From assembly GCA_964626265.1 (NCBI GenBank), contig CAZVCG010000012.1, positions 1-52,093 on the forward strand: DNA of 52,093 bases. Reading direction: 5' to 3'. The notes under the pieces were generated by a model. The model saw nothing but the letters and a program-made list of their open reading frames with translations. It ran no database searches and was not told the origin of the DNA. Below are positions 16,657 to 47,671 of this stretch, in pieces. Numbering within the stretch: position 1 is the stretch's first letter; each line of letters opens with the position of its first letter. The stretch comes from an uncultured Rhodospirillaceae bacterium. GTDB lineage: Bacteria; Pseudomonadota; Alphaproteobacteria; UBA9219. The position numbers were made by a program, and so were the translations under genes.

Positions 16657-16956
16657 ATGACCAAGTCCGACCTCATCCTGCGTCTTGCCGAAAAATATCC
16701 TCATTTGCTGCAGAGGGATATTGAACGCATCGTTAACACCGTATTCGACGAAGTGTCGAATGCGTTGGCGCGCGGTAACCGTGTGGAGCTGAGGGGGTTC
16801 GGAGCTTTCTCGATCAAGCGCCGTGAATCCCGCCAGGGACGCAACCCTCGCACGGGCCAGACGGTTCATGTCGCCGCCAAGTGCGTACCGTTTTTCAAGA
16901 CGGGCAAGCAACTGCGCGACCGCCTGAACGGCATTGAAGGAACCGCGGACGACTAG
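16657..16956 (+). CDS. ihfB: integration host factor subunit beta
   Basis: [18 protein letters not shown] and GRNPRTG. Confidence 0.95.
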
Positions 16957-16987: not shown

Positions 16988-18139
16988 CTATCGGCGCGAT
17001 GCGCCTTGGATTACGTGTTGTCTCAGAATAAGAAGGCCTTTTAGTGCGCTTGACGGAAACAGCTTTATGACCGTCTTGATGTGACGGGTTCCCAACCGAT
17101 GCCATCTAAATACGACATTGGCAAGCCTTCCTTTAAAGGTTCGTGCGAAGCTAAAGACTGGCAATTCACGGACATCTGTCGCGTTGCGAAATTTGTAGTC
17201 TTCAGTGCCGCGCATGAAGTCGAATTCTTTTATGCCGTTATCAATGGCCCAATACATTGAATGCATGAAAACCAAAAGACCTGTCGAATAACTGCGCCAT
17301 TCCGGATCGTAACTCGTGAAATAGCATTGCAGCGTAGAACGTTCGATAAAACCAAACAAATGGGAAACGGGCTTGTCGCCACACTTAAGCACCCCCAGAA
17401 ACATTTTGCCCTGTTCGGCTGCGCGCAACACCATACGATGGAAAATTTCCTTAATGTGAGGGTTCGAAAATATGCCGACTTTTCTGCAATCATGAAACCA
17501 TGCCGTTTTGTGCTGCACCATCGTGTCGATGAGATCCTTGGGAGCGGGAGATGTGCGGATAATCTCAAAACTTACCGGTCCTTTCTGTTTGAGCTTTTTG
17601 CTTTTAACATTAAAGTTGCGCCTTTGTTTGGGCCTGCACGACGCGCGCCATGCGTCGCCATTTTTCCACGTGAGCGAAATATAGGGCGCGTTGTTAAACT
17701 CTGATATAACGGCAAAAGAGGCAAGGTGTTCGGCATCGCGTGAAGCTGGGCGAACGTCTTTAATTAACGCAAGATCGTATAAGGAACTGTTGCGGGCCGT
17801 TTCCCATAGCGCCGATACGACATCGTCATCTTCGGCCAGCGTTGAGCAGTAGTCGTAAATTTCGTTACCTGCCCATTCGAGAATTCGGGTGTAGCATCGT
17901 TTTTCAACCATAAGAGGAAGGATGCCCACAAGCCGCTCATTGCGCGTCGCCGTGACAATATGTAAGGAACGGCGACTGTTTTGGCCAATCGTTTCCCACC
18001 AGTCGCGAATCCAGTCATAACAACTGAACAGATGCGCTTCCGTGCGTGATTGCAAGGCTCGCCAATCATCCGCTATCGCGTCCATATCGCGATCATCCGA
18101 AAGAATACGGCACGTGATGGAAAGATCCGCCAACTTCAA
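16988..18139 (-). CDS. GNAT-family acetyltransferase (CelD/BcsL-like)
   Basis: HLFSCYDW, ILPLM, YDYC, YSTGLL and FDFMRGTEDYKFR. Confidence 0.8.
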   Translation of the reverse strand: MKLADLSITCRILSDDRDMDAIADDWRALQSRTEAHLFSCYDWIRDWWETIGQNSRRSLHIVTATRNERLVGILPLMVEKRCYTRILEWAGNEIYDYCSTLAEDDDVVSALWETARNSSLYDLALIKDVRPASRDAEHLASFAVISEFNNAPYISLTWKNGDAWRASCRPKQRRNFNVKSKKLKQKGPVSFEIIRTSPAPKDLIDTMVQHKTAWFHDCRKVGIFSNPHIKEIFHRMVLRAAEQGKMFLGVLKCGDKPVSHLFGFIERSTLQCYFTSYDPEWRSYSTGLLVFMHSMYWAIDNGIKEFDFMRGTEDYKFRNATDVRELPVFSFARTFKGRLANVVFRWHRLGTRHIKTVIKLFPSSALKGLLILRQHVIQGASRR

Positions 18140-45592: not shown

Positions 45593-46654
45593 GTGATGAG
45601 TTTAACACGCCGAGGTTTCCTGTTTTTGGTTAGAGCTTCCGCCATTGCCTTGGGGGCGAGGGTGGTGGGGGCGCCTCTGGCGGAGGCGAACATCAGCCCA
45701 ACAAAACCCACAAAGCGTCAAATCGAAGCTTTTGAGCTCTTTCCCAAGGCGCTGGAAACCCGATTGGCGCATAAATGCGTTGACATCGAGCAACTTACAG
45801 GGCTTCCGGCCGAAGACGCGTTAACCTGCGCTTTCGACGAAACGCGTCTTGGCATTCATACGAAAGGGCGCGGAATCGTCGAGATCATCGATCAAACGTT
45901 TCTCGACATGGCCGCAAATTATGGAAGCGATTACAAGGAACAAATAGCGTTTCATGAAGAAATCGACGAAATCCTGAAAGCGGAGCGGCGCAGGCAGCAA
46001 GAGGCAAGACATAAGCCTAAAAACGAGCTTAGGCCTTCCCGAAAAAATTCCCGCAAGCAAACCAAAACCCTCACGAAGATTCACGACGACAGGCCTTCGC
46101 ATGTGCTTGATCTTTATGCGAAGGTGATGGATCCGACAAACAAACCGGAACCAAAAACAATCAGAGAAAAATGCCGCGACCTCGCAGGTTGTGATTTGAT
46201 GACTCTTCGGCAAAAAGTCCTGAAAACGCGCGACAATCACTATGTATCTCTTGTCTTCACGGCGCGCCGGTTGATGGACGATCGGCAAGCTCTTGAGGTT
46301 GAGCTAAGGAAAAAGGGCCTTTCGCATGTATTTTATACGTATAAAGACTATCTTTGCCGCATTCTGCATATATGGCCGGGTTATGCGAAAGAGATTTTAA
46401 CAAGTCCCCCGGGCGTACCTATCCTTAAAATAACCAAAACCCCAAGCGTGCTTGAGACCCATAATTGCCCCATGGATATAAGCGTCGGCGCGTTTTTGAA
46501 AAGGCATAACGCAATTTACGCTGGGGTTAGGCGGGTTTTTTCATACTGTTTGGCTATGGCCGAAGTTACGCACGACCTTAGGTCGGATTTGCCTGAAAAA
46601 TCAGAACATAAAATGCCCCATAATTACAAGCCGCAAGCGTTTACCATTCATTAA
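45593..46654 (+). CDS. exported protein with a divergent lytic-transglycosylase-like domain
   Basis: TRRGFL Tat-like signal; AFDET...GIVEIIDQTFLDMAANYG and RQKVLKTRDN resemble alphaproteobacterial SLT proteins. Confidence 0.55.
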   Translation: MMSLTRRGFLFLVRASAIALGARVVGAPLAEANISPTKPTKRQIEAFELFPKALETRLAHKCVDIEQLTGLPAEDALTCAFDETRLGIHTKGRGIVEIIDQTFLDMAANYGSDYKEQIAFHEEIDEILKAERRRQQEARHKPKNELRPSRKNSRKQTKTLTKIHDDRPSHVLDLYAKVMDPTNKPEPKTIREKCRDLAGCDLMTLRQKVLKTRDNHYVSLVFTARRLMDDRQALEVELRKKGLSHVFYTYKDYLCRILHIWPGYAKEILTSPPGVPILKITKTPSVLETHNCPMDISVGAFLKRHNAIYAGVRRVFSYCLAMAEVTHDLRSDLPEKSEHKMPHNYKPQAFTIH

Positions 46655-46657
46655 GTA

Positions 46658-46692
46658 TTATCCACGATTCCTGTGGATATGTTTGTTGATAA
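46658..46692. promoter_or_regulatory. cluster of three DnaA-box-like 9-mers
   Basis: ttatccacg (46658), tgtggatat (46672) and tgttgataa (46684), each 8/9 to TTWTNCACA or its complement. Confidence 0.4.
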
Positions 46693-46945
46693 ACGTGGGA
46701 GTCGCCTCATGAACCCGCACGATTCCTTGGATTCTTAAGGGTTGCCTAAAAATTGGGCATGACTCATAACCGTTTGAAACACGAAACAAAATTTGTGACG
46801 AAAGCGTGTTTTCCGTTTTACAACGCAAAATATATGCACTGCATGGCGTTTCACGACGAGGTTGTGAACAAACCCATGGCCCGCTAAGCCGGGAAAACCG
46901 AAGAGTCAAGGGTTAATGAAAGGTAAATTACAAAAAATCGTTAGA

Positions 46946-47671
46946 TCAAGATATAGACTCGTTGAGGTGGGTGCCGCAATCGACGCGCAAAACTTCACCT
47001 GTAATCGCTGGGTTTTCGAGTAGAAAGCGGACGGTAGAAGCGACTGCTTCCGGTGGCGTCGCTATACCTAGTGGGGCGGCAGCGACAAGCTTGGCAAAGT
47101 GCGCATCGGATTGCCGAGGACTTTTCATAACCGGACCGGGCGCGACCGCGTTTATGCGTACGCGTGGCGCGAGCGAAAGAGCCATAACGCGAGACATTTG
47201 GAACAGGCGCACGCGGCTCGTACGGTAGGCGTTCATAAAATCCGGTATCGGCGTAGCGTCCAATATGTTTACGACAGCGCCCGTAGTTCCTGCGGGCAGG
47301 TTTTTAACAAGACAATTGATCAGCTTTACGGGCGCTTCAAAATTGACGGCGTTATGGCGCGAACCGTCAGGATCGGAGTCATCGCGATCAAACAGGCTGG
47401 CGTTGTTGACCAGCGCAGTGAGCGAATATCCTGCGGCGATGAGCGAAGGGATTAAACCGCCTACGGCATCGTGGTTAGCTAAGTCAGCTTGCACAATGTC
47501 GGCTTTGCGTCCCATGGCGCGGATTGCTTTTGCAGTTTCTTCAGCTTCCGCGCGCGAGGTGTTGTAATGCACGGCGATATTCCAACCGGCTTCGGCCAGA
47601 TGTAGCGCGATTACGCGGCCCAAACGTTTGGCGGCACCGGTGACGAGGACGAAGTTGTTGTTGGCAGTCAT
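46946..47671 (-). CDS. SDR oxidoreductase (pteridine reductase/FolM-like)
   Basis: TGAAKRLG, IAVHYNTS, NNAS, YRTSR (catalytic Lys replaced by Arg) and RINAVAPG. Confidence 0.85.
   Translation of the reverse strand: MTANNNFVLVTGAAKRLGRVIALHLAEAGWNIAVHYNTSRAEAEETAKAIRAMGRKADIVQADLANHDAVGGLIPSLIAAGYSLTALVNNASLFDRDDSDPDGSRHNAVNFEAPVKLINCLVKNLPAGTTGAVVNILDATPIPDFMNAYRTSRVRLFQMSRVMALSLAPRVRINAVAPGPVMKSPRQSDAHFAKLVAAAPLGIATPPEAVASTVRFLLENPAITGEVLRVDCGTHLNESIS

Follow-up and report, generated by a model that had tools for sequence, protein, structure and literature searches.

A conserved, single-copy non-coding module built like a DnaA-reactivating sequence in an uncultured Rhodospirillaceae bacterium

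The DNA analysed here, hereafter the window, comprises 52,093 nucleotides (positions 1 to 52,093 of contig CAZVCG010000012.1, assembly GCA_964626265.1) from an uncultured Rhodospirillaceae bacterium, and the subject of this report is a cluster of DnaA boxes in its non-coding stretch 46655-46945. On balance, we read this stretch as one copy of a conserved, single-copy non-coding module, built on the core of a DnaA-reactivating sequence (DARS), at which DnaA and IHF most likely assemble. The module itself is real and non-random, occurs class-wide, is autonomous with respect to its neighbours and combines a DARS core with an IHF site and a distal DnaA box placed as in DARS2 of Escherichia coli; it neither serves as a replication origin nor codes for an RNA or a protein. 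From this architecture we infer that DnaA and IHF bind, that the nucleotide on DnaA is exchanged and that methylation may play a part; the DARS core makes reactivation the most likely direction. Among the explanations put forward in the initial annotation of the DNA (a datA- or DARS-like DnaA locus, the promoter of a small RNA or a relocated origin), the first is thus the favoured one, on account of the box offsets, orientation and ATTCC spacer shared with DARS1, the DARS2-like IHF site and distal box, and the single-copy occurrence throughout the class. The class was taken to be Alphaproteobacteria from named relatives. The parts of the module are given below, with distances counted from the start of box II.

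46655-46917, plus strand: conserved module in its full extent (match to model R1, 154 bits)
46658-46666, plus strand: DnaA box I, TTATCCACG, 8/9 to TTATCCACA; inverted relative to boxes II and III; TATCCAC or TATCCCC in relatives
46666-46670, no strand: GANTC site (GATTC) that starts on the final base of box I and runs into ATTCC, the 5-bp spacer between boxes I and II
46672-46680, minus strand: DnaA box II, TGTGGATAT, 8/9 to TTATCCACA; invariant core of alignment A1
46684-46692, minus strand: DnaA box III, TGTTGATAA, 8/9 to TTATCCACA; 3 bp past box II in the same orientation
46699-46765, no strand: four GANTC sites (46699, 46721, 46730 and 46761) in variable spacers, at positions not conserved in orthologous modules
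46742-46759, no strand: palindrome TTGCCTAAAAATTGGGCA, starting at +71
46767-46779, minus strand: IHF-consensus 13-mer TTTCAAACGGTTA, 12/13 to WATCAANNNNTTR, at +95
46863-46871, minus strand: distal DnaA box IV, TGTGAACAA, 8/9 to TTATNCACA, at +191
46903-46911, no strand: GAGTCAAGG block with a GANTC site, at +231, conserved within the family

The core block consists of box I, 5 bp, box II, 3 bp and box III, and occupies 46658-46692 (-14 to +20), so that three boxes with eight of nine matches each are packed within 35 bp. The inverted pair with a GATTC centred between its members, which had been pointed out in the initial annotation, was confirmed with boxes at 46658 (plus strand) and 46672 (minus strand). 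Of the two further boxes that had been named as 8/9 matches, the one at 46684 holds against TTATCCACA, whereas the one at 46863 scores 7/9 and reaches 8/9 only against the relaxed TTATNCACA. Box II is the best-conserved block across the class; it is a perfect TGTGGATAA in five of seven family modules and an 8/9 match in the window copy. Box III is degenerate in sequence among the relatives, with its position fixed (TGT...AA). With regard to the frequency of such arrangements, the 1.93-Mb genome contains 338 DnaA boxes with at most one mismatch, and only three loci hold three of them within 400 bp. Similar clusters are therefore rare rather than common, and the geometry of one inverted and two direct boxes separated by 5 and 3 bp occurs a single time in the whole genome, namely at the window locus. 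The third locus with three one-mismatch boxes within 400 bp, C21:4212-4490, lies inside open reading frames. Three DnaA boxes, one of them perfect, are also present in the region upstream of gcrA (C38:1300-1480), in agreement with the control of gcrA by DnaA that is known from Caulobacter.

A DARS is defined by three DnaA boxes of which box I is opposite to boxes II and III and box II matches the consensus (PMC6868365, PMC5742627), boxes I and II being separated by 5 bp (PMC6868365). Direct comparison revealed identical box-start offsets of 14 and 12 bp, with box I inverted, in DARS1, DARS2 and the window. In DARS1, which lies in the bioD-uvrB spacer of strain MG1655, the core reads TTATCCACT-ATTCC-TGTGGATAA-CCA-TGTGTATTA, and in the window it reads TTATCCACG-ATTCC-TGTGGATAT-GTT-TGTTGATAA, so that the ATTCC spacer is also common to both. 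DARS1 and the canonical form of the module moreover both adjoin a gene of nucleotide excision repair; however, the neighbour of DARS1 is uvrB on the downstream side, whereas that of the module is uvrC, upstream and divergent, and the window copy has no adjacent uvr gene. The two also differ in extent, since DARS1 is 101 bp long and independent of IHF, while conservation of the module extends over 200 bp more, in which an IHF site, a palindrome and a distal box are found. It is here that the module resembles DARS2, the activity of which depends on IHF (PMC4245941, PMC11724364). In DARS2 (rppH-mutH spacer) the IHF site IBS2 stands at +95 from box II, and the IHF 13-mer of the window stands at +95 as well, on the side of box III. 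The perfect box V of DARS2 is found at +197, compared with +191 for box IV in the window and a class mode of 199-201. Both DARS2 and the module are intergenic and situated away from the origin. They differ in that the module has uvrC and a short-chain dehydrogenase (SDR) gene as neighbours and contains GANTC (CcrM) sites, one of them often in the spacer between boxes I and II.

The core is not confined to one class. The pattern TATCCACG-N5-TGTGGATAA-N3-TGT was found at 120 or more loci in species genomes, compared with about 4 expected by chance on our own arithmetic. Among the pattern loci listed, 56 have uvrC on the left, and the named ones examined are Alphaproteobacteria (for example Azospirillum, Magnetospirillum, Paracoccus, Tagaea, Pelagibius and Rickettsiales). 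Another 15 of those listed have uvrB on the right in the manner of DARS1, the named ones being gammaproteobacteria (for example Photobacterium, Pseudoalteromonas, Paraglaciecola and Idiomarina), and 49 have neither uvr gene (among those named, Pseudomonas, Comamonas, Thioalkalivibrio and Burkholderiales). The loci with uvrB on the right or no uvr gene often show, near +105 to +107, an IHF consensus, which another DnaA box follows at about +187, indicating that the architecture is common to three classes and has a class-specific spacing. According to a review, sequences similar to DARS occur in 'many proteobacterial species' (PMC10380432).

A DNA search with the 1.5-kb gap between folD and the SDR gene produced no match among 30 relatives, which are too distant for BLAST, and conservation was therefore followed by synteny anchored on the SDR protein and by a profile. 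In the SDR-anchored comparison, six of ten family genomes showed a perfect or near-perfect box 240-320 bp past the SDR stop codon, with its orientation kept. The profile R1, a sequence-only model of the module, was run on 401 genomes sampled evenly across the class and matched 262 of them, nearly always in single copy and usually over the whole length from box I to box IV; within the family, matches were obtained in 44 of 55 genomes. The family alignment also shows that the spacers of the module vary in sequence but hardly in length. Over 57 loci, the distance from box II to the palindrome was 71 +/- 0.5 bp and that from box II to the IHF core 101-103 bp. The distance from box II to box IV was bimodal, with one class of loci at 199-201 bp (the class mode) and another at 190-191 bp (the length seen in the window); the two lengths arise in the arm between the IHF site and box IV and lie about one helical turn apart. 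Such fixed spacing, together with an arm that differs by a helical turn, fits an assembly of DNA and protein and not an RNA. As judged by sequence match, an IHF consensus is present at +92 to +98 in 37 of 54 uvrC-linked loci. The palindrome contains a 15-mer, GCCTAAAAATTGGGC, that fits the Fis-type pattern G-N2-Y-A-W5-T-R-N2-C and lies between the core and the IHF site.

The statement that the cluster lies between convergent genes is borne out literally, the left-hand frame being an orphan, and the non-coding stretch 46655-46945 is the gap between the stop codons of the following two reading frames.

45593-46654, plus strand: orphan open reading frame (ORF) of 353 aa with a Tat-like signal, in the place usually occupied by uvrC; between the end of its stop codon and box I there are 3 bp
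46946-47671, minus strand: SDR gene, the usual right-hand neighbour of the module

In 26 of the 29 top class loci outside the window genome, the left-hand neighbour is uvrC, which starts about 40-250 bp from box I and reads away from it, and the SDR gene is the usual neighbour on the right. This arrangement, also seen for uvrC in the 56 pattern loci mentioned above, speaks for an explanation which we consider unlikely but which has to be taken seriously, namely that the module is a uvrC operator, i.e. a DnaA- and IHF-controlled promoter or leader of uvrC, and that the window copy was left over when uvrC moved. E. coli DARS1 is likewise the promoter region of uvrB, where DnaA regulates transcription (PMC6015884). 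However, the 32 family loci separate into nine with both uvrC and SDR, eleven with uvrC only and twelve with SDR only, and the last group, which includes the window and represents eight genera, retains every motif block and the spacing although the flanking SDR proteins are merely 42-53% identical; a relic without function should have decayed. The module has thus remained intact while one junction or the other was broken in different lineages, which argues for selection on the module in its own right and not just on a promoter of uvrC, and its survival without uvrC means that it is probably more than such a promoter. In the window genome, the region upstream of uvrC, which is found on a different contig (C4:56647-58527), contains no DnaA boxes, and no gene in the window reads leftwards from the module. 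Control of uvrC is compatible with a DARS role where the gene is adjacent, but it is insufficient for the orphaned copies. A comparable case is that of DnaA-regulated alphaproteobacterial promoters such as that of gcrA, which also have DnaA boxes in a non-origin spacer; in contrast to these, the module drives no gene here and maintains a fixed architecture of about 220-260 bp class-wide, independently of its neighbours. Rather improbable in our judgement is a negative site like datA, which would titrate DnaA or, together with IHF, stimulate hydrolysis of DnaA-bound ATP. In datA, a group of DnaA boxes is joined by an IHF site that is essential, and the locus works at a distance from oriC (PMC5742627); the module similarly offers four boxes and an IHF consensus in single copy. 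What characterises datA is a specific arrangement of its boxes 7, 2 and 3 around one IHF site. Whereas datA inactivates DnaA, the core of the module has the exact DARS layout: the inverted box I at 5 bp and box III at 3 bp are the signature of a DARS, base for base with DARS1, datA having entered this comparison by its description only.

The two other explanations concern replication and transcription, and both fare poorly beside a DARS-type site. A relocated chromosomal oriC would be in keeping with the lowered G+C content of the region (45% across 46001-47000, compared with 55% for the contig) and with its DnaA boxes, its IHF site and its GANTC sites. We nevertheless reject it and leave it with next to no probability, as there is no skew switch at the site or at the orthologous site of a relative and a better candidate exists elsewhere. 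GC skew is regular in this genome, most of the larger contigs keeping one sign along their length. As had been noticed from spot counts, it is positive to the left and to the right of the site; contig C12 is positive throughout, with its cumulative minimum at the contig start. In the relative G002, the 200 kb surrounding the orthologous module show a uniformly negative skew, and in ten complete genomes the 40-kb skews around the module are weak and mixed (seven one way and three the other), with no strong switch. The flanking genes converge on the site, and a conventional origin candidate is found on contig C20. Very unlikely, too, is a promoter with a small RNA gene under the control of DnaA and of GcrA and CcrM, transcribed either rightwards, with TTGCCT-17-CATAAC (46742-46770) as its promoter, or leftwards out of the 3' end of the SDR gene. 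Positions 46742-46770 can be read as a weak -35/-10 pair, GANTC sites crowd the window copy, and GcrA acts at methylated promoters (PMC4647560). On the other hand, the -10 candidate is not conserved, since AAC alone is kept and belongs to the IHF motif, and no sigma-70 hexamers conserved beyond the IHF and palindrome motifs were found on either strand. The consensus fold amounts to -2.35 kcal/mol with 0 compensatory pairs, Rfam gave no match, whether gathering thresholds or E values of up to 10 were applied, and the scans for promoters and terminators did not rise above the level of shuffled sequences, the lone 'terminator' match being the inverted boxes I and II. The constancy of spacer lengths despite sequence change, and arm lengths one helical turn apart, are better suited to the phasing of proteins on DNA. 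A conserved small ORF in the module was also considered and rejected, because no frame is open across the relatives and several of these have stops in all six frames.

The neighbourhood that marks an alphaproteobacterial origin comprises hemE or an RP001-like gene, aroE and coaE, with flanking genes that diverge. In this genome the RP001-like gene, aroE and coaE flank another AT-rich spacer, C20:17347-18214, and not the site in the window. This spacer is 0.87 kb long, has a G+C content of 0.33-0.41 in its right-hand part and contains five DnaA boxes, including a perfect one at 18045. It lies between rho (minus strand) and a gene resembling that of a pyruvate phosphate dikinase regulator (kinase/pyrophosphorylase, plus strand), which we take to be the RP001-type neighbour of the Caulobacter origin and which is followed by aroE and coaE; the cumulative-skew minimum is about 2 kb away. 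We regard C20:17347-18214 as the best oriC candidate of the genome.

With regard to GANTC, all six sites that had been reported within 291 bp (46666, 46699, 46721, 46730, 46761 and 46903) were found, and a seventh follows at 46956. The genome has one such site per 430 bp, and the cluster is the second densest in any 300 bp genome-wide. By simple Poisson arithmetic about 0.4 such windows are expected in the genome, so that the GANTC cluster taken alone is unusual but not decisive. Over the window as a whole the motif is rarer than expected (125 sites versus 222 +/- 12 in dinucleotide-preserving shuffles). Scored modules have on average 1.5 GANTC sites per 240 bp compared with 0.4 in their flanks, the window copy being the richest. 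Only two positions recur: the one in the spacer between boxes I and II, which is the only one to do so class-wide (7 of 25 scored modules, and about one third of 30 aligned class loci by eye), and the one in the GAGTCAAGG block, which recurs within the family. Among the relatives, G002 has a GANTC near 46730 and G011 has one near 46761. A full-length methyltransferase of the CcrM type is encoded in the genome (597 bits to the Caulobacter CcrM model, positions 2-349 of 350) and not absent. That the locus is sensitive to methylation, as had been proposed, we offer as a conjecture. The near-CtrA motif TTAA-N7-TAAA, also described earlier, is indeed present at 46913-46927; however, it is weak, it is missing from orthologous modules and there are 683 one-mismatch sites genome-wide, and we therefore treat it as a chance occurrence. 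The densest GANTC cluster of the genome, with 12 sites in 300 bp, is C7:3064-3400; it lies between the genes of a protein of 167 aa with no family assigned and of a coiled-coil protein resembling UbiK, adjoins a gene read as lgt from its sequence, and may be a promoter region strongly controlled by CcrM and GcrA.

The proteins that would act on a DARS-type module are encoded in the genome, which contains genes for DnaA, IHF alpha, IHF beta, HU, CcrM and GcrA, the IHF beta gene being inside the window (16657-16929). In the mechanism that we propose, DnaA would bind box II, the best box, first, and would then recruit a second DnaA molecule head-to-head on the inverted box I across the 5-bp spacer, while a third molecule could join head-to-tail on box III. 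IHF would bend the DNA at +95, and the bend would return DnaA bound to box IV (+191), and perhaps a protein bound to the palindrome (+71), onto the core. The strained head-to-head dimer would release ADP, after which DnaA would rebind ATP. Methylation by CcrM of the GANTC in the I-II spacer, and of the crowded sites beyond it, could tie this assembly to recent replication of the locus.

It should be underlined that several observations weigh against a DARS-type role of the module. Since the module mostly abuts the start of uvrC, the roles of uvrC operator and DARS are inseparable at those loci. The Fis-type palindrome is located between the core and the IHF site in the module and beyond the IHF site in DARS2. 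Gln208 of E. coli DnaA, which is needed for DARS-dependent release of ADP, aligns with a Tyr in the DnaA of this genome, a Gln being found at the +1 position, which calls for caution about a head-to-head interface of the strict E. coli type; Leu290, Phe239, Lys243 and Arg285 are kept. Most GANTC positions are unconserved between orthologous modules. A stand-alone Fis-like protein is present in some lineages only and is elsewhere the tail of a protein of about 480-500 aa, apparently NtrC. Finally, the sole other genome of the genus, G001, gave no match to the module. In this genome, which is 96% complete in about 170 contigs, neither the 1.5-kb gap nor, with E below 1e-30 required, the SDR gene was matched either; the absence could be a loss or an assembly gap.

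A further step, which we take only tentatively, is to regard the module as an alphaproteobacterial DARS that regenerates ATP-DnaA, shares its ancestry with DARS1 and DARS2 and, in bacteria with CcrM, has its activity gated by methylation of the GANTC between boxes I and II. Shared ancestry would account for the presence of the core, an IHF site at +95 and a distal box at about +200 in both groups. If this were true, the DARS system would be older than the divergence of the alpha, beta and gamma classes, and gating through GANTC would tie the reactivation of DnaA to fork passage and to remethylation late in S phase. Alphaproteobacteria are, to our knowledge, the class with the best-studied bacterial cell cycle. 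In the searchable literature, we found neither a paper describing a DARS-type site in this class nor an account of how ATP-DnaA is regenerated in it. The module, present in about two thirds of the sampled class genomes, is a concrete and testable candidate for such a site. The window copy amounts to a natural experiment, in which uvrC has been lost and every motif and spacing retained, and this argues for selection on the module itself and not for a promoter role.

As to the orphan ORF at 45593-46654, its twin-arginine-like signal reads TRRGFL and its G+C content is lowered. It has no Pfam family, and among the genomes of the bacterial family there were two weak partial matches and no real homologue; its last 100 codons or so may be of doubtful reality. 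A stand-alone Fis-like protein of 97 aa is encoded at C11:32511-32801 (minus strand), directly downstream of dusB, the position that fis has in E. coli. Elsewhere in the class, a protein of about 480-500 aa, apparently NtrC, has a C-terminal DNA-binding domain with 60-70% identity to it, and the small protein looks like an NtrC reduced to its Fis-type domain; a gene for a sensor kinase that looks NtrY-like follows. Across the class, the small Fis-like protein does not co-occur with the module, the best match being mostly the C-terminus of the apparent NtrC. In several Alphaproteobacteria, named or metagenome-assembled (L072, L084, L088, L094, L108, L153, L189 and L191), uvrB follows the module on the right at a distance of 3-5 kb, on the strand of the SDR gene. 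The core then stands between uvrC and uvrB, an arrangement of interest because E. coli DARS1 is the region upstream of uvrB.

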